This document shows positions 33,428 through 51,856 of a stretch of 64,000 nucleotides of DNA, piece by piece (within the stretch, counting starts at the first letter, position 1; each line of letters opens with the position of its first letter). The DNA comes from an uncultured Chloroflexia bacterium (GTDB taxonomy: Bacteria; Chloroflexota; UBA6077; JACCZL01): contig CAVXYC010000010.1 in NCBI GenBank assembly GCA_963765765.1, forward strand, positions 96,001 to 160,000, in the 5' to 3' direction. Under the pieces are notes generated by a model. It was not told the origin of the DNA and made no database searches. It saw only the letters and a program-made list of their open reading frames with translations. Made by a program: the position numbers and the translations under genes.

Positions 33428-34114
33428 TTGAAACCAACAGCCATGCTCACCCGCGGCATCTGGATCATCGTCGCGGTGCTTGCAGTCATCGGGATTCTCG
33501 CCGTCTTGGGCCGGCTTTCGGATCTCGGCCGCGGTGTGGGGCCTCCGTCCGCGAGCTCAATTGATACCGGATACGCGGATCATCCATCGTTGACGATGTT
33601 GCACATCCTGCCTGGCGCTCTCTTCATGATCCTGGGCCCATTGCAGTTCGTACGAAGGATCCGCTCGCGCGCTCTTGGGTTCCATCGCTGGTCCGGGCGC
33701 GTCTTCGTAATCTCGAGTCTGGTGATTGGCGTCACCGGGATGATCATGGGCGTTGTCATGCCGATCGGTGGGGCCAACGAGACCGTCGCCACGACGTTTT
33801 TCGCGCTTATCTTTCTATTCGCGGTAGTACGTGCGTTCATCTACGTTCGCCAGGGCAATGTGGCGCGGCACCGAGAGTGGATGCTTCGGGCATTTGCTGT
33901 TGGTCTTGCCATCGCGACGATTCGGCCGATCGTCGTGATGTTCTTTGCCTTGACCAGTCTTTCCCCACAGGAGTTCTTTGGGATCGCATTCTGGCTCGGC
34001 TTCAGTCTGCATCTCGTCATTGCCGAGATCTGGATCCAGCACACGCGACCCCCGGGCCGCCGTGGGGGTCTCGAACCGGCGGGTGTGATCACCCCTGACC
34101 CCAATCACGCTTGA
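33428..34114 (+). CDS. DUF2306-like membrane protein
   Basis: 'HILPG...GPLQF...R...HRWSGR', 'HREWMLR' pattern; AGGAGG RBS. Confidence 0.8.
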   Translation: MKPTAMLTRGIWIIVAVLAVIGILAVLGRLSDLGRGVGPPSASSIDTGYADHPSLTMLHILPGALFMILGPLQFVRRIRSRALGFHRWSGRVFVISSLVIGVTGMIMGVVMPIGGANETVATTFFALIFLFAVVRAFIYVRQGNVARHREWMLRAFAVGLAIATIRPIVVMFFALTSLSPQEFFGIAFWLGFSLHLVIAEIWIQHTRPPGRRGGLEPAGVITPDPNHA

Positions 34115-34137
34115 GCCAGCAAAATATACTGCTCAGC

Positions 34138-34656
34138 ATGGTCAATCGCAGCCTTCACCACTGTCTATATTGCTGGGCGGCCATCACGCCACGGGCATCC
34201 GGGCGACCCAGGCGCATCTGCGGCAGTCAAGCGTGCCGGCGCGCCGCTGACGCGGAACGTCGACGCATTCAACGGCGCCGCGCTGCCGGACTTCAAACGG
34301 TCACTCGTCGTGTCGCGGAGCCCGTCGAGCGTGGCGGCCGCGATCCGCTTATCCGCCGACTGGCAAAGCAGCTTGCGCGCGAGATCTGGCCGGGAGTGCC
34401 TGCTTCACGCGAAGACCTCGATGCGGTAATTGAGGCCATGCGAAACGGTCTCGATACGTCGTGGAGGCTCCGAGACGCTACGGCTAACGGGCACCTTGCA
34501 GGACTCTCAGCATCCGCTCAAGATGGCTTGGAGCGTCTCCATGCGCGGGCCGCGTCAATTCAGAAGATCGCGGAGGAAGAGGAGACTCGGGAGGCCTATG
34601 CGAAAGCCGGACTCAGCGTCGACCCTTCCACCGGATCGTGGGTTCGGCGACGATAA
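34138..34656 (+). CDS. Hypothetical protein with N-terminal Cys4 zinc finger (mobile-element type)
   Basis: 'CLYC...GRPRRICGSQACRR' motif. Confidence 0.55.
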   Translation: MVNRSLHHCLYCWAAITPRASGRPRRICGSQACRRAADAERRRIQRRRAAGLQTVTRRVAEPVERGGRDPLIRRLAKQLAREIWPGVPASREDLDAVIEAMRNGLDTSWRLRDATANGHLAGLSASAQDGLERLHARAASIQKIAEEEETREAYAKAGLSVDPSTGSWVRRR

Positions 34657-34678
34657 CGTTCGCGGAGATTTCGCCCGA

Positions 34679-35080
34679 TTAGAGGGCCGCAAGCTCCTCG
34701 CTGTCGAAAGACTCTATTGCGGAAACCACGCCTGGCGTGCCGAGAGCCTCTTCAGTCATCCGTACGTCAACCCGTACTGATTCAGCGCCGTCGGTGACAT
34801 AGCGAACTTCACCGATTGGTCCATCAGCACGAACTTCCACCAGCATCCCGGGCTCTGGTGGCCAGATTGGCTCGAGATCCGCGACGGCGACAAGGATGGG
34901 AGTGGAATTGAGCGTAGATGGCACCTTTGGCAGAGCAGCAACAAATGGCTGAGCATCCTCCTGGACCTTCACCATCGGCGGCTTCCCGTTGCCTCGAGAC
35001 ATGATCGTCCATTTACCACCGCGGCCCTTGCAGCGCACGCGCGCTCCGATCGCCGCTCGCCAGTTGGGATGCCTGTCCAT
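34679..35080 (-). CDS. Hypothetical protein (two SH3/KOW-like repeats)
   Basis: GGAGG RBS before ATG 35080; 'IGARVR' and 'PGMLVEV' beta-barrel-like starts. Confidence 0.5.
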   Translation of the reverse strand: MDRHPNWRAAIGARVRCKGRGGKWTIMSRGNGKPPMVKVQEDAQPFVAALPKVPSTLNSTPILVAVADLEPIWPPEPGMLVEVRADGPIGEVRYVTDGAESVRVDVRMTEEALGTPGVVSAIESFDSEELAAL

Positions 35081-35316
35081 CGTGGATACCTCCGTCTCGC
35101 AAACGCGGTTGGCTGGATGGCCGGCTAATGCAGGGACAATGTACGTGATCGGACATCTTATCGCCACTTTGCCTTCACTCTGCTGTCGGATGTGTCGTGA
35201 TTCGGGGCGCAAAGCGCAGCTCCACTGGCATCCGCGTGCTCTTCCTTAACCTCGTGAGTGCTGCTGGGGTAAAGTTCAGGAGACAGACGAGGTTGTGTGG
35301 ATGACAAGGAGCACCA

Positions 35317-35514
35317 ATGCCGCGAGACAATTACGCCGAACAGATGGAGGAAGCGGCCAAGCGGGAAACCGCGAAGACGGCTGCTGAAGGCAACTGTATC
35401 GCACGATCCAATGACGGATCACTGTGTCGGCGGCCCGTGCCCAAGGAGCTCCGACAGAAGGGGATCCAGACGTGTCGCGCACATATGGGTCAACGACTGC
35501 GATACATGGCTTAG
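35317..35514 (+). CDS. Small CCCH zinc-finger protein
   Basis: AAGGAG RBS; 'CIARSNDGSLCRR...CRAH'. Confidence 0.6.
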   Translation: MPRDNYAEQMEEAAKRETAKTAAEGNCIARSNDGSLCRRPVPKELRQKGIQTCRAHMGQRLRYMA

Positions 35515-35771
35515 ACGTCGGTATTAGTTTCCTGACACCGCCCGAGAGGTCGCGCTTGCGGGCGTAATGCGGCCTGAAGGCCCGCCGTGAGTAAATAGGC
35601 ACACTTGCGGCGCGGCCGATGAATCGGCGTTCCGGTGGGCAGAGTCGTAGTCATGTCCGGTTCTCTCTGCCAAAACGCGTATGGTCATCGCATCGGGCCA
35701 GAATGGCTCGCGGACACGAGAACCGGGACGCAACCCGCGGAACCATCTCCCTCCGGCAGCGTATCCGGACT

Positions 35772-36270
35772 TCACTCGACAGCTTTACAGGCGCTCCTCG
35801 GTTGTTTCGAGGTCAGAACGTCGAGCGCTACCAGCTCCGAACGCCTGAAGGCCCCAGCGGAGCCCAGGAGGAGCAGAGCGCGATCACGGTGGCCGATGGG
35901 GGTATCGGAAAATTGTCCACCATCCGGCGCAGCGTGCTCGTGATCGCTGCGGCTTTCCGGTCGGCGCGATGCCTTTCGTGCGACGGATCCGTTGCCAGGT
36001 GGATCGCACCAGCGGGTGACTCCGCGGCGATGCATGGCCGGCGGTCACATGGGCCTCGGAGATAGCCGCCAGGCGGCGCTCCAGCGGGCTCATCCGATCC
36101 TGGCTCGTGTGGCAGTTAGATAGTAGGCGACGGTCTCCACCGTCGTGGGCAGGGTGGTTGCCCGTGCTCAGTGCACCAGATACTGAAATGCTGCCAGTCG
36201 GAGGATTGGCCCGCAGCGTGTTAGAGGCATTGCCCCTGGCAATGTAATTTCTCGTCTGCTCGACGATCAC
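35772..36270 (-). pseudogene. Decayed Cre-like tyrosine recombinase/integrase
   Basis: Fragments in several frames: 'ASNTLRA', 'SDWQHF..WC', 'LERRLAAIS.AH...G..SP...LVR..W..IRR..G', 'RDRALLLLG.AGAFRRSELVALDV'; truncated before the HxxR/Tyr motifs. Confidence 0.8.
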
Positions 36271-36345
36271 GGCGCGCGCGCCGTGTCGACCAGGTCTCGC
36301 GACGGACACAGGATCACCGTTGAGATGGCCACGGCCAAGGGGTCA

Positions 36346-37499
36346 TCATTCCGAGTTACCTGCTACAGACCTTCTCTGGCGGAGCGACGGGAGGCATCGA
36401 CGGTGGAATCCGACGATCGCTTCGACAAACTCCTTATGCCGCTCGAGCAAACTGAGGTGACCGGCCGATTCAAGCTCGAGCAGCTCGGATCCCGGGATGG
36501 CCCGGTGCATGAAGCGGCTCACCTCCGGCACCAATACCCGATCCTTGACCGACGTGAGTACCAGCGTGGGCATGCGCAGCGTGCCGAGCGTCGCGGTCTC
36601 GTCGAACTTGAACGACGCCAGATACCCCCGCGCCACCGCTGCGGGGGACAGCTTCGCGCCGAAGCTCGCCGCGAAGTCGAGCTGGCCGCGACTCTGGGTT
36701 CCGGCGAAGCCGCTCAGGGCCGCCGTGATATGCGAGGACCCGTTGAGATAGCTGAGCCAGTTCATCGCCCAGACCACCGGCCAGAGCCAGATCGTGAGAT
36801 GGAGCAATGGCGTCAGCACGGGCTTCTGCAGCGCCCGCATCACATCGCTCGCCGTGGTGGTCCGCACGGGGTTGGTATACGTGGTGTTCGCGAGCACCAC
36901 CCCGAGCACCCGCCGCTGTGCGTCCGCCGCGCACTTCCGCAGGAAGGTCAGGATGATCATGCCGCCCAGGCTATGGCCGACCACGAGCACCGGCCGGTGG
37001 CGTCCCGCGTGCGATACGACCGCATCGAGATCGTCCGCCATGCGATCCAAACTGTAGTTGTCATCGGTCGGACCGCCGGAGAGGCCCAGCCCGCGCGGAT
37101 CCCAGGTCAGCAACCGGAACGGGAGGAGAGCTGACGCTTCAGGTAATAGAACTCGGTGCTATCGATGCCCCAGCCCGGTGCCAGCACGATCGGCTCCCCG
37201 TCGGGCGCGCCGTACCACTCCGCATGGAGCTCGGATCCGTCCGGCCGTCGAACGCGCTGCACGGAACCGGTGCGCATCGCGTGGGGCTCGTCGGTTTCGG
37301 ATCGCCCCAGAAACGCGAGAACGACCCAGCGGCCGGCCAGACTCCAGAGGAGCGCGAGCGACGCCAGCACCAGGGACCCGGTCCCGACGATCGCGCCGGT
37401 GAACCAGAGCCAGAGGAGATAGACGCCGCCGCCGAGGAGCGCGATCGAGGCGACTCCAATCAGCCAGGTGAATGGGAGAATGAGCGGGAAAAACGACAC
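36346..37499 (-). CDS. Alpha/beta hydrolase with N-terminal TM helices; frameshift near 37115
   Basis: 'PDGSELH', 'WDPRGLGLS', 'GHSLGG', 'SAGHL'. Confidence 0.85.
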
Positions 37500-38043
37500 G
37501 TCACCTTCCGGGGCACTGACCCGACGGGGCCATACGCAGAATGCACCGCCGGTCCGTCTCCCCGGAACTGACGCGAGGCCGGGTGGCGCGCACGGCCGAT
37601 TGGAACTATCGGGCCGGCCCACCGACAGGGATAGGCACCGAATACCCAAGGCTCACGCCGCGGGGGCCTTGGGTATTCGGTGATGCGTGAAGGTGAAGAC
37701 GACGATGCGCCGGAGGCTTTCCCCGTTGAGTGTCTTCGGCAACCTGCTCTCCGACGCGGTGCGGTACACGCAGCCGGCGGCTCCATCGCCGTGCGACTGT
37801 GTGAAGGACGAGGACTGGACGCTCGTGCGCCGTGGTGACTAAACACGGCCACTGGTCCGTTAGGCTGGGACGTGTCGACGAAACGATCGCGCGGACATCA
37901 CCGGCAGCAGAACGTCAGCCAGATGGGTTAGGCGAGGACATTCTTGTTGAATGCCTGAAGATCGGCGGCCCTGGGCCATCCTCCCAGAACCCTCGCTGTC
38001 TATCCTCGGAACCCGAGCCCTGGCGATGGGGGAGATTGCTCGA

Positions 38044-38532
38044 TTAAACGAGGCGATCCGCAAATTCGCTGAATCTCGTTCTGGATCGGTTACCACAATG
38101 GGGCGGGAGGAAACCGCCGCGCTGCCACGACGAAGGGTCCGCAAGGGCAGCGATGAGATTTTGGACGAATGCCCGGTCCACGTCGCTAGCCGGTCGCTTT
38201 GCAATAGACGATGTTCGACCGTGTCCGTACCATGTCCACCACAGGACACCCTTGTCTTGAAGCAACTGGATCTTCAATCCGCGATCCCCGCCCTTCCAGA
38301 ACACTGACCACTCCTCGTTTGATGGACCAACGGCGGGATGTTCGGTCGTTAGCGAGGGTATAGCCGTCTTAGCCTCAGCGATGCACGAGTCGACGAGTTC
38401 CGCGAGTGCATGCGCGGCTTTGACTTGTTCTGCCCGATTGCGAACGGCCGAGGCCTGCAGTTCCGCTTCGTCAGACTCGATCCGGTCGGAATCCTTTTCG
38501 AGATCTCGGAGTCTTTCCTGGAAGTCGCTCAT
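38044..38532 (-). CDS. Hypothetical protein
   Basis: GGAG RBS, coiled-coil N-terminus, Trp-rich beta segment. Confidence 0.55.
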   Translation of the reverse strand: MSDFQERLRDLEKDSDRIESDEAELQASAVRNRAEQVKAAHALAELVDSCIAEAKTAIPSLTTEHPAVGPSNEEWSVFWKGGDRGLKIQLLQDKGVLWWTWYGHGRTSSIAKRPASDVDRAFVQNLIAALADPSSWQRGGFLPPHCGNRSRTRFSEFADRLV

Positions 38533-39325
38533 TCAATACTCCAACTAGCCGCTGAAGGTGCCCTTCGGGACGCTCCGAGTCACTGACCCTTGGAACACTC
38601 ACGCCGTACGAGTGGCTGTAAATCTTTCAGTGATTTGTAGCCGGGGCTTCCCGCCGAGGTTCTACGTGGCTAGTGCCCTGATCCTAGCAATTCGGGCGCA
38701 TTCCGAATTGAGTGTAATCAATCGAGCACCTACCGGCCGGTATGTGGGAGTCAGTTCGACGTTGATCAGGCGGTCAACTCACTGCAGTAGAACGAAAGGC
38801 CCGGGCGTCTGCTCCGGACACGATGTCACGACGATGCGCCGCGCTCCTGCCGGTGGGGTACGATCGTGAGCGGGGTATGGTCCGGTCAGGGCGGGCGACC
38901 ATGGGGGCAAGGGCAGCGGCAAGGTAAGGAAGAAGGCACCCAAGTCGACAACGCAAGGGAAGCATGGTCTCCGGCCGCACGAGAAGCCCGAACAAGCCGC
39001 CACCGCGGCGGCTCCCAAGAAGTCCCGAAAGTGACCGCCACGCCGGAGCACGAGAGCCATTGTCGTTGATCCGATGGGTCTACTCGTCCCGCGCTGGGGA
39101 CGGCGCCGCCGGCGCGTGCTAACTACCTTGCAATGAAGTTCAGCATCGATGAAAATGGCGCGCGGCGGCGACGGGGGCCTGCAAGCGGGTATACTTCTGG
39201 TTGCTGGATAGTTTCGCACGACGACCCATCGGGGTCGGGCATCGCCGCGGCGCTCACGTGCCGCTTCGGATTCCCCTCGTGAACTCGCGCTGACGGAACC
39301 ACCAAGCCCACGTATGGAGTCAGCG

Positions 39326-39673
39326 TTGAGTTACGCAGACAAGACTTTGACCTGCCGCGATTGCGGCCAGGCGTTTATTTTCACGAGTGGGGAGCAGGAC
39401 TTCCACGCGTCGAAGGGGTTCAATAACGAGCCCTCCCGATGTGCCGACTGCCGGGCAGCGAACAAAGCAGCCCGTGGAGACAGCGGCGGCTATAGCTCCG
39501 GTGGCTACAGCAGTGGCGGCGCTGGTGGCTACGGCCGCTCCGAGCGCGAAATGTTCTCCGCAACCTGCTCTGACTGCGGAAAAGAAGCGCGTGTGCCGTT
39601 CCAGCCCCGCGGTGACAAACCGGTGTACTGTTCCGACTGCTTCTCCAAGCAGCGCGGGAGCTCCTACCGCTAA
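39326..39673 (+). CDS. Zinc-ribbon plus CxxC-x17-CxxC domain protein
   Basis: 'DKTLTCRDCG..F.FT..EQ.F...KGF.NEP.RC..CR', Gly/Tyr linker, 'REMFSATCSDCG....VPFQPRGDKPVYCSDCF'. Confidence 0.92.
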   Translation: MSYADKTLTCRDCGQAFIFTSGEQDFHASKGFNNEPSRCADCRAANKAARGDSGGYSSGGYSSGGAGGYGRSEREMFSATCSDCGKEARVPFQPRGDKPVYCSDCFSKQRGSSYR

Positions 39674-39689
39674 CCCGGTACGACGCGGT

Positions 39690-39735
39690 GGACATTCGAA
39701 TGGGCCAGGGAGAACCCTGGCCCATTCGAATGTCC
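39690..39735. repeat. Perfect 21-bp inverted repeat
   Basis: GGACATTCGAATGGGCCAGGG-AGAA-CCCTGGCCCATTCGAATGTCC. Confidence 0.9.
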
Positions 39736-40728
39736 GATCCCGGGAGACTCAAGCTCGCGTTCGAGCGATAGATCGCTGTCACTGGGCAATTCCAAATTAA
39801 CCCGAAAAGTACAGGCGATTGCCCATAGCCTTGGGCTCGTACTGGACAACGCGCTCAGGCGGGGCGGGACTGATCAACCAAGTCGATGAGGTCCTGCGCA
39901 TCGGCGGCCAGCTCTCGACGCGGATGATCCCCCTGGGCCTAGCCCTGGTGCGTACGCTCCCCACTCGCGCACGTGATCGATATCGGCGACGTGACGCTAT
40001 CTGGAGCATGTCAACCTAAGAACTCGGGTTTGCTCGACGTCCTACGTTCGGGTTGTGAATTTAGGGACCACGCACTGGATATACGTCGATTGCCCAACAT
40101 GATGTAGTGGACTTGAGTTCAATTATTAGTTCATATGGGATGGAGTAGATGTGCTGCCGAAGGAGACGCTTTGAGAGTCAGACCAGGTTGAGCGATTTAT
40201 GTTGACGTCGACGTGACCACGGACTGGACTGCGGCCGAACCGATCTTACGGAGCGCCGCGGGCAGGTCGGGATCGTGACCCACGGTGTTGTACCGGCACG
40301 CCTCCGAGCGCTCCTGGTGGTGCTGGGATGCTTGGTGGCACCGATGCTGATCACGGCTGAGTCCTCGGCACCGCGTGACCTGGCCGGCGATGTCCGGGAC
40401 CCCCACCGTTCGACTTCGTGTGAATCCAGCGCACAGACCTTCATGTAGTCCCTCGTGGTGTAGTTGGCCTGCTTGGAAGTCTGGATCGAGCGGCACGAGG
40501 CCCGGTGGAGTTTTAGATAGCTCGGCGACGGGGTCCGATAACAATTTACGACGAATTCGTTCGCGTACCGTTCGACCCAACGGCGATAGCCGTCTCGTCA
40601 TCCCGGAAATGCCACTACCACATCCCTACCCTCCATGCTCGACTTGTTGTTCCCATGCCCGTGTGTCCGACGGGTCCTTCCCGCTCCGGCTCCAAGGTGT
40701 TGGAAGACCGCAGTCCCCGTTTGCTACC

Positions 40729-41350
40729 TCACACGGTCACCGTTTGTACCCAATGCCAGCGCGGTCCCGTTGAACCGGTGCGGATCGGGCGGCAGAACAT
40801 CAAACCGGCGATTCGGGATGTCCGGGCAGTCCAGATCGGGCGGGGCGGCGCGGGGTGCACACCGTCGGATAGGCCGCGTTGCAGATCTGCGCCTCGCGCA
40901 CGGGCGGGACGGACGCGCGGCGCCGGTGGCACGGACATGGCTCCGCTCAACGGAGCGGTAGACGGTGCAGGCGCCATGCACGCGATCCCCAAGCCGAGCC
41001 CCTGATCGCGCGCTGACTGCACGGCCGCGGCGAACCGATCCGCATACCGCGAGTTCAGCTGAATGGTGAGCTGGATCGCGTAGGTTTCGGCGGCCAGATG
41101 CTCGTACAGCACCCAGGTGCTCTCGTCCGTATCCTGGAGCCACAGGTACCCAAGCAGTCGGCCGAATCGATCGCGCACGTCCAAGTCCATTTCAAGCTGC
41201 GCTGACTTAACCAGTGCCAGCTCGGATGTTCGGGCTGACGATTCAGGACCGAACCATTGGACCGGCTGTTACCAGGGGCGAAACGGAAATGCCGAAGCCG
41301 AGGAGCTGGGCCATCGCAGCGCCACTCCGTCTTTCCATCGGGCGTCACGC
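40729..41350 (-). pseudogene. Thermonuclease-family gene remnant with an Excalibur-like tail
   Basis: 'LDVRDRFGRLLGYLW', 'YA.QLTI..N.RYADRF..A...AR.QG.GL', then 'PPPPDLDC.DI..RRF.VLPPDPHRF' in other frames. Confidence 0.7.
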
Positions 41351-41464
41351 GGCGGCCAGCCTGACTCTACTGCGCGGCCGGAGCCGCGCCATCCTCCGCA
41401 CGGTGGGCAGCGCAGTAGCATCGTCGCTGCTCCAATCTGGCCCGCTCGTCCGTTGCGACGGGTC

Positions 41465-41580
41465 TTGTCAGCGAGCATTCCCAGCGCTATGCTGACTCAA
41501 CCAGACCGTGCTCGTGGCCAGAGCACGGTCGGGGGAGGGCAAAGGCCGGGGGAATGGGGACCCCTCTCCGGCCTTTCGTG
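41465..41580 (+). ncRNA. Candidate sRNA gene copy 1 (promoter plus two hairpins)
   Basis: TTGTCA-N17-TATGCT, hairpin GACCGTGCTC/GAGCACGGTC, hairpin AAAGGCCGGGG/CTCCGGCCTTT; paralog at 44130. Confidence 0.55.
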
Positions 41581-41984
41581 TCCCGAGCGCGCGATCCACG
41601 CCTGCGTGCCCCGCTCCGGCGGTTTGCTCTCCGTGAGCCATGGGGCCGCTGCGGGCTCGCGCTCGGCATCTGGACGCCGGCTGATTGCGCCCTCGCTGAG
41701 GTGGCGCTTGGACGCCCCACGATGGCGGCAAGTCTGAATGGTCTAGCAGCAACGCCCCTGTTTTACGTGGAAGCGGAAACCGTGGGTTCTACTTCAGCAC
41801 GCCCGTGAGGGCGGCTACGAGGAACGGGATCAGGAGTCAGTCGGCACGACCCTGGCGGCCGACCGGGATGCCGGAGCCCAGGTTGGCCGAGACCTCGGAC
41901 GATTGGGCGCGGGGTGGCACATGACCACCCGTCGGCGTTCGCGCGGTCTCGAGTTGAACCGGTGTCAAGACCGGCGCGGCCGCC

Positions 41985-42470
41985 TCACGGCTCCGGCGGC
42001 GGCCCGGCGGGCTCCACGTGAAACTTCGCCGCCAGCCGCAGCATCTTGGGCATGTCCGGCTCCGCCGGCGGGGGAAGCGTCCGCCCCCGCGCCGGCTCGC
42101 CTACCTCCGCCGCGAAGCGCTCGAACTGGGCGGGCGATGTGATCTGCAGGAGCCGGGCCGGCGCCGCTTCCGAGACTGCGAAAGTGTGCGGGATGTCGCG
42201 CGGGAGCAGGACAAACGTGCCCGGCGCGGCGGACCACGTCCGGTCGCCGCAGGTGACGGTCAACTCGCCCTCCAGCACGTAGAACGCCTCGTCCTCGACC
42301 CGGTGGATGTGCGGGGGTGGCGCGAAGCCGGCTGGCGCGAGCTGCTCGAGGAGCGTGAACGCGCCGCGGGTCTGGTCGCCCCCGGCCTTGATTGTCATGA
42401 GGGTGCCGAGGAACCAGATCCCCTCGCCCTCCCCTGGTCCGAGCCGGTAGCCGCCCGTGTCGAAGCTCAT
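41985..42470 (-). CDS. Cupin domain protein (quercetin dioxygenase-like)
   Basis: 'PPPHIHRVEDEAFYVLEG', 'PRDIPHTF'. Confidence 0.88.
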   Translation of the reverse strand: MSFDTGGYRLGPGEGEGIWFLGTLMTIKAGGDQTRGAFTLLEQLAPAGFAPPPHIHRVEDEAFYVLEGELTVTCGDRTWSAAPGTFVLLPRDIPHTFAVSEAAPARLLQITSPAQFERFAAEVGEPARGRTLPPPAEPDMPKMLRLAAKFHVEPAGPPPEP

Positions 42471-42861
42471 CGCCGCCTTCTTCCCGCGCGGCCACGCCGC
42501 TCGTAGTAGATTCCTCGGGTACCAGACTACCAGGATGTTTCACGTCCTGGTAGAGCGATAATCCGGGAGGCTGACCGCGTCTCGCCTCAGTTTGGACGTC
42601 CTGTCCGGTTCCCGAAACCGCCACCCTGGAAATCGTTCGTTCCGATAACGCCCGAGCCTGTTGAAAATTTCGCCCGCGGCATAGTCCACCAATCGAATGA
42701 GGCCGAAATAGAGCCCCTGGGAGTCAGTTTCGGGCCCTCGCCGCCCCGGCTTGCAGAGCTATTCCGGTTCATCGTTACCAGACAGAACGGACCAGGTCAG
42801 ACGGCTCTGCGGCGGATCCGTCTGCTGCCTGGCAGGAGGACTACTCGCTCGCATCTCCATG

Positions 42862-42894
42862 GGTCTTGACACGCCGCCGGTGCGGTGTCAGGAT
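42862..42894 (+). promoter_or_regulatory. Sigma70-type promoter with overlapping palindrome
   Basis: TTGACA-N17-CAGGAT; TGACAC...GTGTCA inverted repeat spans the spacer. Confidence 0.45.
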
Positions 42895-42936
42895 AGCAGG
42901 CACGCTCGTGCGGTCAGTCCCCGAGGAGGCGCTACC

Positions 42937-43938
42937 ATGCTGCGCCGCCGCTTCCGATTCCTGCTGATGACGCTCCTGCTGGCCGCATCCGCGGTCGCGC
43001 TACCGCCGGTGGAGACAGCCACGGCGGAAACGCTCACCCTCACCGGCGAGCAGCTCGCTGCCGGTGACCAGTTCCCCGGCTCCACTCTCACTTTCACCTG
43101 CTCCGCGTCGGACCCGAACACGGTGACGTTTAGAGCTTCGGGGTTCGCGACCGGCCCCTATCCCGGCACCTTCACGGAGCAGGGCTCTTTGACCCGCGAC
43201 CCCGCGACCGGCCAATTTACCTTCAACGCGACCTTCGAGATTCGCTCGTTCGGCGGGACCGTCACCGGTACCAAGACCGCTGCGAATTTCGGGATTGGCA
43301 CCATTGGGTGCCCCGGGCCGCCCATGGTCTATACGGCGGGCGGTCCCGTTGTTGTCAGTTACACCGCCCGGATCGAGACCGCCGACGGCGCCTTCACCGA
43401 CCAGGGCAGCTCGGGCGTGGGTCTATGCTGGCAATGCGGATTCGCCGATGCCCTCCTGGGCGAAACCTTCATCTCGGAGCAAGCCTGCGCCGTCGAGGCA
43501 CTCGCGGCGAGCACCGCGTCGGCCGATTCTGACCGGCGGGGTCGGTTGGACCCGGCGCCCTTCCGCCGCCTGCGTGATCAGGTCCTGGCCCGTTCACCCG
43601 GCGGGCAGCGCTACGTCCGCCTGTACGAGACCCACAGCCCGGAGATCGTCCGCCTGCTGCTCGCGGATCCGAATCTGCGGACCGAGCTGGTGGACGGGCT
43701 GCGGCTGTGGCAGGCCGATCTGACGGCGCTGGCCGACGGGCGCGGCGGCAGTGCGACCATCGATGCCGAGCAGGTGCGGGCGGCCGAGACGGTGCTGGAC
43801 CGATTGGCGGCGAAGGGTAGTCCGGCGCTGCGACGAGCAATCGAGCAGGAGCGCCGGGCACACCCGCCGGCGGGCTTCGTCGGGATGCCGCTGGATCGGG
43901 CACTGGATGAGCTCACCCGCGGCCAAGCGGGGCGCTAA
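42937..43938 (+). CDS. Secreted protein with CFI-box-CTERM-like C-terminal domain
   Basis: GAGGAGG RBS, signal peptide, Thr/Gly-rich beta domain, 'C...FRRLRDQVLARSPGGQRYVRLYETHSPE...LR'. Confidence 0.7.
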   Translation: MLRRRFRFLLMTLLLAASAVALPPVETATAETLTLTGEQLAAGDQFPGSTLTFTCSASDPNTVTFRASGFATGPYPGTFTEQGSLTRDPATGQFTFNATFEIRSFGGTVTGTKTAANFGIGTIGCPGPPMVYTAGGPVVVSYTARIETADGAFTDQGSSGVGLCWQCGFADALLGETFISEQACAVEALAASTASADSDRRGRLDPAPFRRLRDQVLARSPGGQRYVRLYETHSPEIVRLLLADPNLRTELVDGLRLWQADLTALADGRGGSATIDAEQVRAAETVLDRLAAKGSPALRRAIEQERRAHPPAGFVGMPLDRALDELTRGQAGR

Positions 43939-44129
43939 GCCCGAATAAATATCCCCGGCCGCTCGTATGTCACCGTATGCTGTGAGCACCGTCGGTGAGC
44001 GGGCCCCTCCCCTCCCGACGGCGTGCCGGGCCGCCGGGGTGGGCACGTCTCCCAACGTCACCCCGGCGGCCCATCGGCCGGTCCCAGTCTACTGCGCCGC
44101 CGGGGCCAGCGTCACTTTCCCGGTGGGTC

Positions 44130-44242
44130 TTGCCCGCATACACGCCTCGCGCTATGATGACATCAATCCGACCGTGCTCGTGGCCACGGGCACGGTCAGG
44201 GAAAAGGCCGGAGGAATGGGCACCCCTCTCCGGCCTTTCGTG
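44130..44242 (+). ncRNA. Candidate sRNA gene copy 2
   Basis: TTGCCC-N17-TATGAT, hairpin GACCGTGCTCGTG/CACGGGCACGGTC, hairpin AAAGGCCGGAG/CTCCGGCCTTT. Confidence 0.55.
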
Positions 44243-44290
44243 CACCTGGTGATCGACGCCGCCGCCCGTACTTGGAAGCGCCGCCCTCAC

Positions 44291-44815
44291 TCAGCGGAAC
44301 AGCTGCTGGACGATCAGTGTCCCGACTGCGGTGAGCGTCCGTCCGCCCGCCCCGACGAGGACGACCGTGGCCGGGTGCCGACCCAGTTCGTCCGCCTCCC
44401 CACTGGCGGGCTGGATGGTCGCGGTGAACGACTCCCCGGACCGCGTCGCCCGGAAGTCGATGACCGCCCGGTGAGGCCGGCGATGCCGTCGTGAGTCGGC
44501 GCAGCTCGTCTCGGGGTGTTCTTCTGCCACCAGGATCGTGTTCGAGGCGCCATCCTGGACACGCGCCGCACCCTCGACCCGCGCCTGGCCGTCCGCGCCG
44601 ATGGTGACCTGCGCGTGCAGGTCGAAGTTGTCGGCGGGTCCCACGGAGGGGGAATCGCCAAACCAAACGACAAGCCACTGAGCCTCGGGACGCGGTCCGC
44701 GCCCACCATCCGGCGGGTGTCAGGTCCCGTCGTGCTCGGCCGCGGCGCTGGCCGGCAGGAGCGCGAGCATCCCGACCAGGAACACCAGGGCACATGCAGC
44801 CCCGTCCGGGGCCAC
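44291..44815 (-). CDS. Secreted hypothetical protein, frameshifted
   Basis: GGAGG then hydrophobic leader 'HVPLVFLVGMLALL..'; core 'DFDLHAQV...VQDGASNTILVAE...TLIVQQLFR' spread over frames. Confidence 0.5.
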
Positions 44816-45132
44816 GCCCGGTCCTCCCGCCAGTCTAGCGCCGAGTGGGGTGCCCGGCAAGCCCGGTCCGAGTCAGCGCCTCCCGACCGATCAAGCCTCC
44901 GTTGATCGCTCGGGAGGCGCTGACGAGCCTTCAGAAGATGCTCACCGAGGAGTTATCTCCGATTGAGGAGATGTGGGAGCGGCGGAACTGATGGATCGAG
45001 ACGCCGGGTCCCAACTCAGCACGCTTACGGGTGACGAGACTGGGGCGCTGCTGCGTCCCAAGGACACCAGCACGGACAGACCAGGAATACAATGGCTCTG
45101 ATCATCACCAGGAAACGCGAAAGGAGCTCCTA

Positions 45133-45375
45133 ATGGCCCAAGCATGGCCACCGAAAATCGGCGATGCAGTACGCGTGAAACGATTTCGGAATGAATACCG
45201 TGGTGGAACATCACAGGCGGGCGGGCCGATCGTGAGCATTGAAGGCACGGGAGATTCCGCAGTCTATGCAGTGAACTGCCGCACATTCCGCTACATCGAT
45301 ATGGACGGCCAGATAAAGAACACGGCACTCGAGCCGCTGCGATGTTCGCTAGCTGATATCGAGCCGATTGACTAG
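45133..45375 (+). CDS. Small hypothetical protein (KOW/SH3-like)
   Basis: AAGGAG RBS; 'PKIGDAVRVK'. Confidence 0.55.
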   Translation: MAQAWPPKIGDAVRVKRFRNEYRGGTSQAGGPIVSIEGTGDSAVYAVNCRTFRYIDMDGQIKNTALEPLRCSLADIEPID

Positions 45376-45469
45376 CACGTTCAGGATCAAGAAGGCGCGC
45401 GAGACGCTCGCGCGCCTTTACACTTCGGCACCAACAACCTGAGGCCCCGCGCCTCCAGCCTCCGTCCGG

Positions 45470-45640
45470 GGCCGCGGCGACGCCGGACACGAGGGAGTCT
45501 GGGCGGAACCGCGAGTACGTGGCGTCGAATTGTTCGATCCGCTCGAGAATGTGCTGCTGCATCTGGCGGCCCAACGGCTCGTGGGTCTCGATCTCCCATT
45601 GGGTTCCCATGGCCTCGAACGTGAACACGCGCGTGCTCAT
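45470..45640 (-). pseudogene. ApbE (FAD:protein FMN transferase) N-terminal fragment, copy 1
   Basis: 'FTFEAMGTQWEI...FDATYSRFRPDSLVS'; no downstream ApbE sequence. Confidence 0.7.
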
Positions 45641-45680
45641 GCTGGCGTCTACCGCGCGGGAGCCTCCGGCGATCGCCACT

Positions 45681-47053
45681 TCAGCTGGCCCCATAGGTGA
45701 TCCGATAGACCGCGCCGCCATCGTCGTCGGAGACGAGCAGGGCGCCGTCGGGCGCGACCAGCACGTCGACCGGCCGGCCCCAGACGCTGCCACGGTTCCC
45801 CTCGTGTGCCATCCAGCCGGTCGCGAAGTCCTCGGCCGGCCCCGCGTTGCCGCCATCGAAGGGGATCCGGATGACCTTGTAACCAACCGGCACCGAGCGG
45901 TTCCACGAGCCGTGCAGCGCCACGAAGAGGTTGCCGCGGACTCCATTGGGGAAGCTGGTGCCGTCGTAGAAGCGGAGTCCGAGCGGCGCGCTGTGCGCCT
46001 GGAAGGTCACCGCCGGTGGGTCGACTGTTGCACAGGCGTCCGGTCTGCCCAACTGGGGGTCGGGCTGCAGACCGCCAGGGACCGGATTGCATCTCGGCCA
46101 GCCGGCGTCGCCGCCGTCCCGCACCCGGTAGACCGTCTCAAAAGGCACGTCGTCACCGAGCTGGTCGCGGCCGTTGTTGGTCGCCCACAGCTCGTCTGTA
46201 CCGGGCCGCCAGACGAAGCCCACCGCGTTCCGCAGGCCGCGCATGAAGATACGGCCGTCGGAGCCGTTGGCGTTGTAGACCGAGATCGCCGCGCGTCGCG
46301 CGTCGCTCTCCTCGCAGACATTGCAGCTCGAGCCGACCGCGACGAAGAGCCTGCCGTCCGGGCCCAAACCAATGGTGCGGGTGCGGTGGCCGCCTCCGCT
46401 CGGGAGCTCGGGGACGACTGGCTCCGGACTGCCCTGGCGCGCGCCGTCCGGGCCGATCCTGAAGCGGACGACGCGGTTCGTCTCGCCGACGTAGAGGTAG
46501 TCCTCGTGGAAGGCGAGGCCGTGGGGTTGGCGCAGCCCGTCGGCCCAGACCTGAATCTCGTCGGCCACGCCGTCACTGTTGCGGTCGGGTAAAGCATAGA
46601 TCTGGCCGTCGGTCATGCCAGTCGCGAAGACCGTACTGCCCGGGCCGATCGCCATGAAGCGCGGGCCGCTGAGGCCAGCGGCGAACACGTTCGCTTTGAA
46701 GTCCGCCGGTAGCGTCAGCGTGCGGGGCTCGGCCAGCCGCCCGCTCCGGAACTGAGGCGCGACGTCGAGCGGCACCGGCCCCTGCGCACCGAGCGGGGCC
46801 GGCTCGGACGGCGCGCTCGGTGCCAACCCGATGCTCGGTTTCGCGTCAGCAGCCGGCCCAGTCGGCTGCACCTGGTCAGCCACGACTGGCGTTGCGGGGA
46901 TGGCGGTAGGAGCTACCGTACGGTGGCCGCGACGGTCGAGACGGCCACGGTGGGCGGCGCGGCAACCTGACTGCCAGGCGACGCGCAAGCAACGGCTCCC
47001 GCCACCCCAGCGAAGAGGCCAATGGTTACGATCCGCATGGTCAAGGTGTTCAT
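45681..47053 (-). CDS. PQQ-dependent sugar / L-sorbosone dehydrogenase family protein; frameshift in the leader near 46920
   Basis: AGGAGG RBS; 'GPRFM', 'PHGLAF', 'GHRTR', 'VGSSCNVC.E', 'GLRNAVG', 'AHSAPLG', 'HGSWNR', 'GRPVD...SDD'. Confidence 0.9.
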
Positions 47054-47204
47054 AATTTCCTCCTGATGAAGGGGAGTGATATCCGCCCACCAACGGTGTA
47101 TCCTCGAATGACAATTCGAGATTAGCCTCGACGGACATCATTGCGCCCGGCCGCGAGGGCAGCCGGGGACCCGAGGTTGGTCAAGCCGGGCTGCACCCCG
47201 AAAA

Positions 47205-47365
47205 TTCCTCAATCCGGGACACCAGCGAATCCGTCCGGAACCGCGAGTACGTGGCGTCGAAGACTGCGATTCGTTCGAGGATGGGCTGTTCCAAGCGACT
47301 GCCCACCGGCTCGTGGCTTTCGATTTCCCAGTGGGTGCCGATAGCCTGAAACTTGAACGTGACAT
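47205..47365 (-). pseudogene. ApbE N-terminal fragment, copy 2
   Basis: 'FKFQAIGTHWEI...FDATYSRFRTDSLVS'; shares CGGAACCGCGAGTACGTGGCGTCGAA exactly with copy 1. Confidence 0.7.
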
Positions 47366-47651
47366 GGGGACGTTGTCTTCTGCTGCGCGGGCCGGCGTGG
47401 GTTAGATGCGCTGTGGCAGACGGCGCTGTTTGGCATACGCGATGACAGGCTTCCGAAGGTGTTACAGGAACCAAGACAGCCACCTTAGCGCAGACTCCTG
47501 CATTTGAGTTTCTTGAATAGCCGCGATACGGATGCTGGAAGCTTGGGGCGCGGTCTAGTCGCCACATTCGGTCAGGGTCGCCACACCGCGCGGAGCCCGG
47601 CCGCCCTGGATGGATCGATGGCGAGAGCGGTTCATCGGAACGCGAGCCGTA

Positions 47652-48523
47652 TCACGACAGTCTAGGCTCCAGACCTTTTGCTTGCAGTACGGGCACGACC
47701 GTCTCGCTCGTAAGAAATTGGATCAATGCTCTAGCCGCATCCGGTTCTTTTGCGCTCGTCCCGACGCCAGCCACAACGGTCACATGGTGCTGGATCTCCG
47801 GTGGGAGGGGGCCAACCAGCTCTACGCCACCGACGGGCAGTATGTCGCTGATGACGGAGAGGCCGAGCTCGACATCACCCGCAGCAACAGCACGCGGGTT
47901 TTGCCCGCCACCGCCCCATCAGCTTTGTCTTAGCCCGCATCTCCTCAGCGATTCCGAGCCGCTCCATGAGGCTCGCGAGATAGATTCCGCCTCGACTGTC
48001 CTTCGTATAGCTGATTGACGTGGCCTGAAGGAGCGCATTTCTAAATGCCTCAACTGAGCTAATGTCCGGTTGCGGAGCGCCGGCACGCGCGGCAACGCCG
48101 ATGCTCATGCGGGCTACGTTCATGCGCGTTGATGGGTCGATTTTGTGCAAGGTACTGAGATGGTCGATTTCTTCAGATGCGAAGAGGGCAACGTCGAAAT
48201 CACCACGATCAATTAGTTCCTTCAACTGGGTGGGCAGCCCGAAGATCTGGACGAGCGTATGGATCGCTGTCCGTTCGAACTCGGGTCCGAGCGCCTCCAT
48301 CGCTGCACGCATACCGGGAATGCACAACACCCTAACTTCAGCGATCTTCACGGTGAACTCCTTGAGTCGAACCGACCATAGAGGGCTGCACCAACTGTCC
48401 CATTGTCTCAACGGCTCTAATGGAACGGATCTCGCGCGGATCAACGGTCTGACTAGCGATGGCGTTGACGGGCCAAAGCAGCGCGCAGGCGATGAACAGG
48501 ATGGCCGCAGTTGCCCGGTGCAT
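47652..48523 (-). CDS. ModA-like (SBP_bac_11) substrate-binding protein, frameshifted
   Basis: Signal peptide, 'IGVAARAGAPQPDISSVEAF..ALL.A.SI.Y', then 'GDVELG...SDILPV.GVELVGPLPPEIQ' in another frame. Confidence 0.75.
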
Positions 48524-48977
48524 GACAGGCCACACACCAAGTAAGAGGTTGACGCGTCTACAAAACGTAACAGCCCCTCGAACTACGGGCCCCGCCCGGC
48601 GCGATCGGTTTGGGGTAGTCTACGATGCGAGCAGTGCCGGGGTAGAGAACGGTTGACCGCACAATGCCCGCGCCCCCAGTAAACTGCGCCGGCCATCGCG
48701 GTCAGTTCCTCCGTTCCGAGGCTGCCTCTAGCTCCTCCAGGTGCCCCAACAGCATCGTGTGCAGTTCCTTAGCGAGCTCGCGCGAGATGTTCGGTGGCTC
48801 GATCGGTTCGCGTTGTGTCCCAGGCGGCAACGCGGCTGCAGCGTCGCACTCGGCCCAGCGGTCGAGCACTTCCGCGGTCATCTTAGGTCGGGCCAGCTAC
48901 AGAAGCGTATCGCGTGTCACTTCGTGGCCGAGCGGTGTATCCTGTGGAAGCGGATTACGTGGTACGAGGATCTATTG

Positions 48978-49523
48978 ATGAAGCATGTTATGGCGATACT
49001 AGCGGGATTTCTCGGCCTGCTGGTCGTCGTGACGCCGGTTTCGGCACACCACAGGGGCGATCACGAGGGTGGTCCGCCGAACGAATCGGCGTCGCAGGCG
49101 CAATCTAACAAGCAGAACAAGGACGATAAGCAGAATAAGAACGACACTGAGGATCAAGACGAGAAGAAACAGGGCGAGGACGGGGAGAACTCGGGCTTGC
49201 ACCTCGGTCAACTTGTGCGCAATCTCGATGATTCGCCCAACGCGCTGGCGTCGGAGTTTCGTAACTGCGCCGAGGAGGACAACCTGCGCGACATGAATCG
49301 GGGCGAGATCAAGCGCCTGGCCCGCGCCGCCGGTCTCGGCCCGCAGAACCTCGAGAATCGGCTTGACTCGGACGATCTGGACGATCTAGAGGAGTCCCTG
49401 GATAACCGTCTCGAGGCAAACGACATCAGGGGTCTCAGCGTTGGCAAGCTTTTGCAGGCCGCGCACGCCTGCGGGATAACAACCAGCGAGCTGGCCGACG
49501 AGCTGCGTGAGGATCAAGAGTAG
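48978..49523 (+). CDS. Secreted acidic hypothetical protein
   Basis: GAGG RBS, signal peptide, QNKDD-rich linker. Confidence 0.65.
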   Translation: MKHVMAILAGFLGLLVVVTPVSAHHRGDHEGGPPNESASQAQSNKQNKDDKQNKNDTEDQDEKKQGEDGENSGLHLGQLVRNLDDSPNALASEFRNCAEEDNLRDMNRGEIKRLARAAGLGPQNLENRLDSDDLDDLEESLDNRLEANDIRGLSVGKLLQAAHACGITTSELADELREDQE

Positions 49524-49548
49524 CTCAGGACCCGAAAGGGCGGCAGGA

Positions 49549-49583
49549 GAAAGAGCCTCGGGTCGATGCCCCGAGGCTCTTTC
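49549..49583. terminator. Bidirectional terminator-like hairpin
   Basis: GAAAGAGCCTCGGG-N7-CCCGAGGCTCTTTC. Confidence 0.7.
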
Positions 49584-50082
49584 ATTGAGTGAGATACGTC
49601 GTTCGCGTATAGGCGCCCGAGTCTTTGCTCTTTCGGAAGAGATCTCGTTGGCACCTCCGTTCACGATCGAGTCGGCGCATATCAACGCCGCCGGCTGGGA
49701 AGTGACCGGAAGTCAGTACTCGCCGCGGATCGCATTCGCCCTCCGCCGACCTCGCCGGAGGGGTTGGGTGGAACGCCTGCACGGGCTCACAACAGCACCA
49801 GCCTGAATGCTCATGATGAACTCGATGGAGTGGGCATTCCTGGTGGTGCTGCTCCGGCTGGTCGAGCGCTTCGTGCTGGGCGACTGACACCGTCTTCACC
49901 CGTTGCGGGTACTCGCAGGCATGGCATGGGCTTTGCCGGTGGAGGTAGTGGTGTAGAGACCGTCAGGAACCTGGCGCGCCTCCAACGAGCAGGACACCTG
50001 AGGACTGCTGCGCCGCCCTCTCTGCGAGTGCCCCTGGCCGATCTGGGTTGGGGGCTTCTTCCTGCTCGGCTCAGCGTCGAGG

Positions 50083-50469
50083 CTAGTTGCAGCTCGCCAC
50101 CTGAACCGACTGATCAACGATCCGGACATCCCGACCGGTGCTTCGCTCGCGGAACGTCACCCAGCCCGGGCCGCCGCTGTGGAACATGCCCCGGAGTGTC
50201 GCCCCGCTCTCCGTCGTGTCGCTGAACTTCCCTCCCGTACTCGTCAGCAGCAGCTCATCAGCGGCCGCCCCCGAGATGTCGAACGGCGAGACCAGCCGCC
50301 ACGCACCGATCTCGAGATCGATGTAGAAGGTGCCGGTCGTGGCCTCGAAGTAGGCGCAGGCGGCCTCGGCCGATCCCGCCGTCATCGGCAGAAATGTCGC
50401 GGCCGCTACGACGGCGAGGACACTGACAAGCTTCCGCACATCCCTGGGCGCATCGCGGTTGAGAATCAT
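50083..50469 (-). CDS. Secreted hypothetical protein
   Basis: GAGGAG RBS, signal peptide ending AEAA, Cys near both ends of the mature part. Confidence 0.6.
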   Translation of the reverse strand: MILNRDAPRDVRKLVSVLAVVAAATFLPMTAGSAEAACAYFEATTGTFYIDLEIGAWRLVSPFDISGAAADELLLTSTGGKFSDTTESGATLRGMFHSGGPGWVTFRERSTGRDVRIVDQSVQVASCN

Positions 50470-50654
50470 TGGTTGGGACTCCTCTTATTAACTACCCAAT
50501 CATCACCTGATGGTACCGCCAGCAGATCATCGTGCAATGTCTCGCCCAAAGATCCTTCCGCGGGTAAACCACTCACGCTGCGCAGTTAGCCATCAGATTC
50601 GCCGCGACGGCGCGCTGGTGCGGTGCGGGGTAGCGAGTTTAGGCCCAGAAGCCA

Positions 50655-50860
50655 CCGGTTTCCCGTCCATGAAGAAGGGCACAAACCCCCATTTCACGAT
50701 CCGCAGCTCACGAGTGTCATTGGTGTGCTGCACCACAATGGGGATGTCCTGAGAGGGCGCCACAGTCGAAGCGGGGCGTCACGTCCGTCTCGGCGAACTC
50801 TTCCAGGCCAAACCGCCGCATCAGGGGACTGGGATCACCTAGCGTGTAGCGTCCACACAT
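50655..50860 (-). pseudogene. SRAP (SOS response-associated peptidase) 5' fragment
   Basis: 'MCGRYTLGDPSPLMRRFGLEEFAETDVTPRF...WGFVPFFMDGKP'; closely similar to 59135-59341, then ends. Confidence 0.8.
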
Positions 50861-50992
50861 ACTCCCAATGCTCAGTTCCTAGACCCCGTTAGCCGTGACG
50901 GTTCAGAAAGCTTCGGCGGTTGCCGATGCATTTTAAAGTGACCGTCAGGCGACATGTCTGGATATCTCGCAAGAAGGGCATCGACCCTCAGT

Positions 50993-51271
50993 TCACTCTT
51001 TCGCCCGCTTGAATACAGCCCGGTAGACCCGGACACGCGAGCCCAAGGCGTCCCCATAGGTGACGCTCTCCCGGTCGGTAAACGAGTGTTCCGGGCTCAA
51101 CGAAACCGTCTCCCATCCATCAGCCCCCTTTCCTTGCAGAATCTCTACAAGTTCGCGTGGCTGACCTTGAGGTCTGGCCGCTCGTCTTGGGCGCACTGTC
51201 CCCGCCATCGGCGCAGCTCCCACCGCCGCGAGTCCCAGGGCCACCAGGCTGCGACTCCATCGTCCGGTCAT
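50993..51271 (-). pseudogene. DUF4177-like protein fragment
   Basis: Signal-like N-terminus, 'L...GADGWETV...YRAVFKR'. Confidence 0.4.
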
Positions 51272-51505
51272 CAGACACCTCCGCACCACTCGCTCGGTCC
51301 CGAACCGGCGGTTTATGAGTCGATCGCACGGTCTGGCGCGTCGGGCGAGCCACCCGGGGCGGTGCACTGGCGCGGAGTATCGGGTGGCCAGTGTACCGCT
51401 TCTCCTGATGTCCTGCGCATTGCCACCCGATGCGGCCACGTGGCGACCCACTTGACGATGGAAGCAAGCGTCAGACTCTGACCTTTCGTGCAGCTAGCCG
51501 CGACC

Positions 51506-51730
51506 TCAGCTCGATTCGATGCGCTCCGCAACAGGGGTCTCTGGAATCCCGTGATCCCGCATGAGCAGGCTCACGTCTTTCCAGCCGAATTGCTTGATGC
51601 CGGCGTCCAGGCGCTCCATGGCGTCGATCAGCGCCAGCTTGTGCACCTGGTCCAGCCCGTCCGCCCACTCCGGCAGGTCGGGACGCACGCCGCGCATGTG
51701 CGACCTCCCCCGCAGAATGGCCCGGCCGCG
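51506..51730 (-). CDS. Small hypothetical protein or remnant, paralogous to 53363-53600
   Basis: 'RGRSHMRGVRPDLPEWADGLDQVHKLAL'. Confidence 0.45.
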   Translation of the reverse strand, partial: RGRAILRGRSHMRGVRPDLPEWADGLDQVHKLALIDAMERLDAGIKQFGWKDVSLLMRDHGIPETPVAERIESS

Positions 51731-51856
51731 GGACAACGTTGCCGCCGGGACCGCTCCTGGACAGCGCGCCTCGATCTCCCTATCATGCCGTGGCGACACA
51801 GCACCTCCCGCTTGACGAATTCCTGTTCGAAGTACGGGGTGAACTAAAGGATTGCC

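Follow-up and report, generated by a model that had tools for sequence, protein, structure and literature searches.

Are two closely similar repeats in the genome of an uncultured Chloroflexia bacterium a pair of small RNA (sRNA) genes, or have they been duplicated and kept for some other reason? The repeats lie in a stretch of 64,000 nucleotides (nt) of contig CAVXYC010000010.1 (positions 96,001 to 160,000), here called the window, and coordinates refer to it throughout unless another handle is given. The original prediction, made from the letters of this stretch, described two self-contained units, and both are there nearly letter for letter (Table 1). Copy A and copy B are each about 120 nt long and lie 2.66 kb apart, separated by unrelated genes, and the sequence gives each a promoter-like site, two hairpins, and a terminator-like end. 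We favor the view, in which our confidence is about evenly balanced, that they are two paralogous, stand-alone sRNA genes transcribed from the plus strand. Each copy would use its own sigma-70-type promoter to make an RNA of about 80 nt, in which a single-stranded, G-rich linker joins a 10-bp hairpin to a long, GC-rich hairpin at the end that would double as the terminator.

Layout and pattern of change of the two copies

When the window was aligned with itself by BLASTN, copy A matched copy B at 81.3% identity over 123 columns (E 3e-25). The predicted transcribed part is 91% identical in the pairwise alignment, while the flanks, compared in register, are unrelated at about 37–45%. The edges of the unit are sharp, one at the −35 box and the other at the tail of hairpin 2, and between them both copies have the same order of GGGTCTTG, a 17-nt spacer, GCGCTATG(C/A)TGAC, two hairpins, and UUUCGUG. 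What has been kept between the copies is exactly the segment from promoter to terminator-like end, which argues for a pair of genes. A 33-nt match further upstream may extend the homology, but whether it belongs to the units is uncertain, because chance two-copy families of like quality occur in the same 6 kb.

Table 1. Features of copies A and B and of their neighborhood (window coordinates)
Feature	Position	Strand	Description
Copy A unit	41460–41580	+	Read from window sequence, pairwise alignment
Copy A promoter-like region	41460–41493	+	GGGTCTTG 41460–41467; −35 TTGTCA 41465–41470; 17-nt spacer; −10 TATGCT 41488–41493
Copy A predicted transcript, ~81 nt	41500–41580	+	Predicted ends; start placed 6–8 nt after −10
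Copy A hairpin 1	41504–41530	+	10 bp
Copy A linker	41531–41540	+	G-rich; from the fold
Copy A hairpin 2	41541–41576	+	12 bp, AAU bulge, 3 bp, 3-nt loop; CCCCUCUCC at 41561–41569
Copy A tail CGTG	up to 41580	+	End of UUUCGUG
Copy B unit	44125–44242	+	Read from window sequence, pairwise alignment
Copy B promoter-like region	44125–44158	+	GGGTCTTG 44125–44132; −35 TTGCCC 44130–44135; 17-nt spacer; −10 TATGAT 44153–44158
Copy B predicted transcript, ~78 nt	44165–44242	+	Hairpins, UUUCGUG end
Copy B hairpin 1	44170–44197	+	From the fold
Copy B linker	44198–44202	+	From the fold
Copy B hairpin 2	44203–44238	+	From the fold
Copy B tail CGTG	up to 44242	+	End of UUUCGUG
Possible upstream extension, copy A side	41353–41385	+	33-nt match, 79%, around (G/C)TCTACTGCGC
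Partner of the 33-nt match, copy B side	44075–44107	+	Overlaps end of the 150-nt repeated element (43943–44093)
SNase fragment	40729–41190	−	Neighbor of the copies
Cupin gene	41985–42470	−	Stop at 41985, 405 nt from copy A
Signal-peptide protein without a Pfam family	42937–43938	+	Neighbor of the copies
117-aa gene	44291–44644	−	Stop codon 44291–44293, 48 nt past the end of copy B

The promoter-like footprint is the first element to consider. A consensus scan of 41000–45000 found two promoter-like sites, both at the units, against a mean of 0.2 in 50 shuffles. TTGTCA-17-TATGCT in copy A and TTGCCC-17-TATGAT in copy B match the consensus at 9 of 12 positions each and are sigma-70-type by consensus match only. 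Read in this way, the promoter-like sequence of the prediction, with a spacer diverged in sequence and kept in length, is confirmed. GGGTCTTG and GCGCTATG.TGAC are perfectly kept between the copies, and the spacer, fixed at 17 nt, is identical at 10 of its 17 positions (59%), which makes it more diverged than the RNA (Fisher p 0.006).

Related boxes occur elsewhere. The −35 boxes of the GTCTTGACA type also head other strong promoter-like repeats of the genome. A near-consensus promoter, GTCTTGACAG(T/C)CTTTTCGGGCCGTTCGTATCAT, is present in three copies outside the window (C4:7582, C5:8945, and, on the minus strand, C11:55661, all in the same genome, G000). Behind each lie about 400 nt that are conserved and have no Rfam match, and the C4 copy is antisense to the 3′ portion of a gene resembling, by eye, one for a cyclic-nucleotide-binding protein. 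Within 2.7 kb of the window (41461–44135), there are four GGTCTTG[ACT]C sites, two at the units, one at 42861 on the plus strand, ahead of the secreted-protein gene, and one at 41964–41975 on the minus strand just past the cupin stop. The motif may serve the locus as a common −35 box or regulator site; genome-wide it is not enriched, with 222 sites in the 13 Mb of both strands.

The plus strand of both units folds stably, with minimum free energies of −54.0 kcal/mol for copy A and −47.6 kcal/mol for copy B (z-scores of −4.1 and −5.3, or −4.06 and −5.30 to two places), and none of 200 shuffles did as well. All 25 base pairs are standard in both copies. Substitutions affect 2 of the 50 paired columns versus 7 of the 31 ungapped unpaired columns (Fisher p 0.024), and the indels comprise 1 nt in loop 1 and 5 nt in the linker. 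The two paired substitutions change U-A to U.G (column 27) and G.U to A-U (column 55), with pairing retained via G.U, and a further pair, G57.U70, is common to both copies. Since the stem G.U pairs read as A-C mismatches on the minus strand, where the folds are also weaker (−48.1 kcal/mol for A and −44.9 kcal/mol for B), the earlier observation that these stem changes work on the plus strand only was correct. The loops are GUGGCCA(C) in hairpin 1 and GAC/CAC in hairpin 2. This pattern argues for constraint on both the promoter boxes and the helices, with drift in the spacer and flanks, which is the signature of a small transcribed gene.

The same hairpins could also be (bidirectional) terminators or 3′ untranslated region (UTR) structures of convergent minus-strand genes, their likeness to a promoter-led unit being incidental. 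Hairpin 2 reads AAAGGCCGG...CCGGCCTTT, preceded by an A tract and followed by a T tract, and the minus-strand tail is the longer one in copy B (UUUU). Like an intrinsic (bidirectional) terminator, it has a GC-rich stem between AAA and UUU, and the minus strand of both units folds significantly (z −3.7 and −3.9). Copy B, lying so close behind the 117-aa gene, could simply terminate it. However, copy A is 405 nt away from its nearest upstream minus-strand gene, the cupin gene, and paralogs of the 117-aa gene elsewhere have different downstream sequences. The G.U pairs, moreover, become mismatches on the minus strand, and unlike a terminator alone, the unit has a short U tract, a first hairpin, and a conserved −35/−10 footprint that would be left unexplained. 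We consider a purely minus-strand role improbable.

A cis-acting role stands at a similarly slim level. Here, a convergent promoter would fire toward the facing gene's 3′ end, and the hairpins would act as an attenuator that sets antisense read-through, as in lambda OOP RNA or an excludon. Both copies do face the 3′ end of a minus-strand gene (the cupin gene for A and the 117-aa gene for B), and hairpin 2, judged by its U tract, would be a weak terminator. Yet the gaps are 405 nt in one case and 48 nt in the other, the facing genes are unrelated, and the RNA as drawn overlaps neither of them.

Several observations also weigh against our preferred reading of the copies as two sRNA genes, among them the significant minus-strand folds and the possible terminator role of copy B just described. 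Transcription and termination as drawn, and any action in trans, are predictions from the sequence. The evidence for covariation consists of two sequences with two one-sided changes; with two sequences only, the pattern is suggestive and no covariation test is possible. Conservation within the units is lowest in the unpaired segments, which is where a seed would be expected, and CCCCUCUCC, for which a role in pairing with Shine–Dalgarno (SD) sequences had been proposed, forms the paired 3′ arm of hairpin 2 (the predicted terminator stem) and not an exposed loop, which makes that role a weak one. Hairpin 2 has a strong stem, but its UUUCGUG tail has only three U's, and a terminator scan did not call it because the U tract is short. 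(The well-conserved zf_Tbcl gene in the window ends in a long perfect hairpin, at 39690–39735, that has no U tract, so terminators of this type are plausible in this organism.) The unit is missing from a genome of the same genus (G001; 92% complete, 650 contigs), and the searches made found no homologue outside its own genome. Finally, the locus is a GC-rich, gene-poor mosaic with many short paralogous DNA pieces; where such pieces are common, a retained duplicate need not mean function.

Coding potential does not explain the conservation. An ATG in the hairpin-2 bulge (41554 in copy A and 44216 in copy B) opens ORFs (open reading frames) of 84 and 92 aa, which have only the nine residues MGTPLRPFV in common, within the repeat, and the loop and linker indels shift every frame across the unit; a conserved ORF spanning the unit is thereby ruled out. 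Six SD-led ORFs of 12–70 aa surround the copies; A and B have none of them in common, and none looks clearly membrane-like (the highest 15-residue hydropathy values were 1.59 and 1.4). The frame-breaking indels, the nine-residue overlap, and the lack of a shared SD-led ORF together indicate that the units are non-coding, and the last of these also indicates that there is no type I toxin partner. The original prediction had stated that no ORF led by a ribosome-binding site follows the units and had likened the RNA to an antitoxin. The first statement stands insofar as no SD-led ORF is shared, although the bulge ATG does open the two ORFs; the second is not supported.

Distribution of the unit

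If the copies belong to a family, further members should be found in the same genome or in its relatives. The genome itself (6.49 Mb in 33 contigs, 91.8% complete) gave only the two copies and a palindromic self-hit by BLAST. A covariance model built from copies A and B scored them at 109.7 and 104.8 bits and their shadows on the reverse strand at 32.6 and 25.5 bits; it found no third copy at E up to 1, nor was there one, even diverged, at the paralogous loci. For the relatives, among which the unpublished genomes G006 and G100 are counted, BLAST against 60 genomes returned only partial matches of 24–39 nt in four other genomes (E 0.002–0.007). The covariance model, run on 100 relatives, matched four other genomes, all distant, at E 0.0086–0.087 per genome, which is chance level. 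With laxer filters, it matched none of the 9 other genomes of the family (E up to 1) and none of the 38 others of the order (E up to 0.01). A weak match beside the zf_Tbcl gene of G001 (21 bits, E 0.011) proved to be an ordinary A-tract/U-tract terminator. Consequently, the multicopy family that had been envisaged comes down, under the covariance model in this and related genomes, to exactly two copies in one genome.

Wider collections were equally empty. A pattern scan for the hairpin-2 loop motif had no match in species-representative genomes. Metagenomes gave 10 loci, none of which extended past the 16–20-nt motif under the model (best 13.9 bits). The 17-nt motif of hairpin 1 occurred at at least 119 loci, with the partner arm at 0 of 119 among the matches listed. 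Plasmid and phage collections gave no match, and viral contigs gave none. With Rfam 15 (4227 models), nothing in the 64-kb window reached a gathering threshold. At E up to 10, the region 41300–44400 had seven sub-threshold matches, the best of them on a copy being flg-Rhizobiales (19.7 bits with a gathering threshold of 55, E 0.52), and 6C was absent. The impression that the RNA matches no known family, 6C included, was therefore borne out by the Rfam scan.

The 11 sequencing runs returned as holders include no RNA run. Contigs from four soil or rhizosphere DNA runs cover the stretch in fragments, with no informative joint. One piece of 151 nt lies on 44077–44227 with two differences and another on 41314–41463, and they bear on neither transcription nor covariation; the coverage has a single X2 entry, 43521–44300, at a depth of 2.3.

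As far as these searches reach, the pair is confined to one genome. The marks of a conserved noncoding RNA (ncRNA) family, namely occurrence in several genomes together with covariation, were not found.

Possible modes of action

How might such RNAs act? No match to Hfq, WhiB, or LpxC genes was found in the genome, although at 91.8% completeness their absence is not proven. With no Hfq gene detected, any action in trans would be Hfq-independent. Our best guess is a regulator that uses the G-rich linker together with the bulge, or one whose hairpin 2 partly opens so that its C-rich arm can meet purine-rich ribosome-binding sites; that either specific mechanism is right seems to us unlikely at best. 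Searching the genome with both RNAs by blastn-short returned only chance matches of 12–19 nt. Across 4818 crude start regions, RNAduplex energies were no better than those of dinucleotide shuffles, a result that is uninformative rather than negative since accessibility was ignored. With that same limit, the first percentile for copy A was −52.8, against −50.8 to −52.4 in three shuffles on the same subset of 1200 regions; for copy B it was −50.9 when all 4818 regions were taken, and three shuffles on the 1200-region subset gave −48.1 to −49.5.

The RNA may instead titrate a protein such as CsrA through GGA motifs. The genome has one CsrA gene (C14:49668–49820, 69 bits), and in each copy one GGA falls in the single-stranded linker, with a GGAAU 13–17 nt away at the hairpin-2 bulge. 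These two GGA motifs are the only ones conserved, however; copy B lacks the GGA that copy A has in its apical loop, and known CsrA sponges hold many more sites. GGA is also expected to be frequent in G-rich sequence, and the Rfam results include no match of the CsrB, RsmY, or RsmZ type. A CsrA sponge therefore appears very improbable.

Another possibility, to which we give little credence, is that the pair founds a very young new sRNA family, born in an accessory island, that acts via structure and not by seed pairing. Because boxes and helices are kept and seeds are not, the RNA would act through its structure: selection would be keeping the promoter boxes and helices, for protein capture or for the regulated opening of an SD/anti-SD helix.

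Paralogous sRNA genes are a well-known arrangement. OmrA/OmrB, PrrF1/PrrF2, and AbcR1/AbcR2 are such pairs, conserved across genera and adjacent or in tandem, with a single-stranded seed that is kept. Copies A and B resemble them in being two nearby copies of about 80–110 nt, each with its own predicted promoter and terminator hairpin, and in having an RNA body more alike than its surroundings. They differ in lying 2.66 kb apart, in being found in one genome only, and in having unpaired parts that are the most variable. The pair is an orphan candidate of this familiar kind, a pair of sRNA genes running from promoter to terminator.

Two further families offer partial parallels. The 6C RNA of high-GC Gram-positive bacteria has C-rich motifs in its loops (PMC6486639). 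Both RNAs are short and have two hairpins, come from a GC-rich genome without an RNA chaperone, and have a C-rich motif able to pair with purine-rich mRNA sites. In contrast to the C-rich loops described there, the C-run CCCCUCUCC of our units is in a stem; the loops here read GUGGCCA and GAC/CAC, and Rfam gave no 6C match even at E up to 10. Nor was a WhiB gene found, which makes an actinobacterial host improbable. RsaE/RoxS of Firmicutes regulates without Hfq by placing C-rich regions against G-rich mRNA sites (PMC4409812, PMC6158497), and is the nearest mechanistic model for the C-rich idea. Here, however, the C-rich segment is not single-stranded and no conserved target is proposed, and the Rfam scans of the window and of 41300–44400 returned no RsaE/RoxS match.

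If transcribed, the pair would be a clean case of an sRNA gene being born and duplicated within an accessory region, in an uncultured soil bacterium whose lineage has no detected Hfq gene and no described sRNAs that could be linked to it, and the promoter footprint would offer a rare look at the promoter architecture of that lineage. Otherwise, it is a routine one-genome candidate with no target proposed, and it opens no long-standing question.

A mosaic locus

The surroundings of the copies differ from the rest of the window. GC content is 57–60% over the first 34 kb, which is densely coding, and 64–68% from about 36 kb (36000–48000), compared with 61.2% for the genome, and the gene map from about 36 kb is sparse by a crude codon score. 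At the DNA level, G001 shares with 34000–52000 only 36443–37467 and 39200–39672, neither of which is near the copies. The region 36000–48000 looks like an accessory or acquired one. ApbE N-terminal fragments and a glucose/sorbosone dehydrogenase also lie near the copies, and most neighbor genes have dispersed paralogs (five copies or pieces in total for the secreted-protein gene and four for the 117-aa gene). The gene contexts of A and B are unrelated, and the flanks of copy A are without a paralog.

Copy B sits at a particular point in this mosaic. On C28, a direct repeat of about 26 nt (7741–7766 and 16831–16856, the only two in the genome) bounds a 9.09-kb segment with a paralog of the 117-aa gene and a 150-nt non-coding element at its opposite ends. 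In the window, these two end modules are joined, with copy B between them, which places copy B where two modules meet in an accessory region prone to recombination.

Such a setting makes a non-functional, DNA-level remnant the rival to be taken most seriously: a duplicated promoter with palindromes, left from a former gene or mobile element and kept by chance or by patchy gene conversion. The window has three other short local paralog pairs, almost all genes around the copies are fragments or have dispersed paralogs (SNase, ApbE pieces, the secreted-protein and 117-aa genes), GC content is raised, copy B is exactly at the junction of two repeated modules, and the unit was not found in any relative searched. 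Conversion or recent copying, however, would not leave a spacer of 59% identity between two perfect 8-mers, nor would it limit substitutions and indels to unpaired positions. The sequence around the copies likewise lacks the marks of a miniature inverted-repeat transposable element or an insertion-sequence end: the two ends of the unit, GGGTCTTG... and ...CCTTTCGTG, do not form inverted repeats, the flanks have no target-site duplication, and there are 2 copies only in 6.49 Mb. We regard a remnant as rather unlikely, and the reading as two sRNA genes remains the one we prefer.

Two apparent links between the units and other sequences were rejected. Descent of the unit from the promoter or leader of the secreted-protein gene (GGGTCTTGACA at 42861) is not indicated, as the local alignment score was reached by 247 and 393 of 1000 shuffles. 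The sharing of CAACCAGAC between copy A and the repeat of about 26 nt in C28 is due to chance, this 9-mer being common in the genome. A planctomycete host, suggested by a weak DUF1559 match, was likewise rejected, as the genome has only two weak DUF1559 matches.

Other repeated modules were noted at the locus. The 150-nt element (43943–44093), directly upstream of copy B, is 91% identical to C28:16657–16806. Its window copy is strongly structured (z −3.2 on the plus strand and −4.3 on the minus strand), with the C-rich stretch CCCCUCCCCUCC in the upper part of one hairpin, and the plus strand of the C28 copy, at z −0.31, folds no better than shuffles; the element may be a second repeated ncRNA or 3′-UTR module. 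The window looks as though it contained the closed junction of the 9.09-kb segment, which has glycoside-hydrolase-like fragments, no integrase that we could see, and a gene pair that by its motifs resembles DUF433/DUF5615 toxin–antitoxin genes. The secreted-protein gene (42732–43938) has four further copies or pieces (C20, C14, C7, and C10:163249). Upstream of its −35-like GGGTCTTGACA, about 190 nt are highly conserved between it and the C20 paralog and exceed the 5′ UTR in this respect; a different downstream hairpin is common to three of the paralogs.

The zf_Tbcl double zinc-finger gene (39314–39673), together with a leader of about 110 nt, has 78–82% DNA identity in other genera of the family and at least four further copies in this genome. 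The three other local paralog pairs, found by the self-comparison of the window, are all on the minus strand. Pieces of 142 nt at 45485–45626 and 47217–47358 (77% identical) encode ApbE-like N-terminal segments of about 50 aa; their host ORFs do not continue as ApbE, and they are probably gene fragments. The pairs at 50655–50862 and 59136–59343 (87%) and at 51633–51722 and 53358–53447 (82%) cover the ribosome-binding sites and first codons of minus-strand genes, and the MCGRY start of the former is presumably the N-terminus of SRAP/YedK-type proteins.

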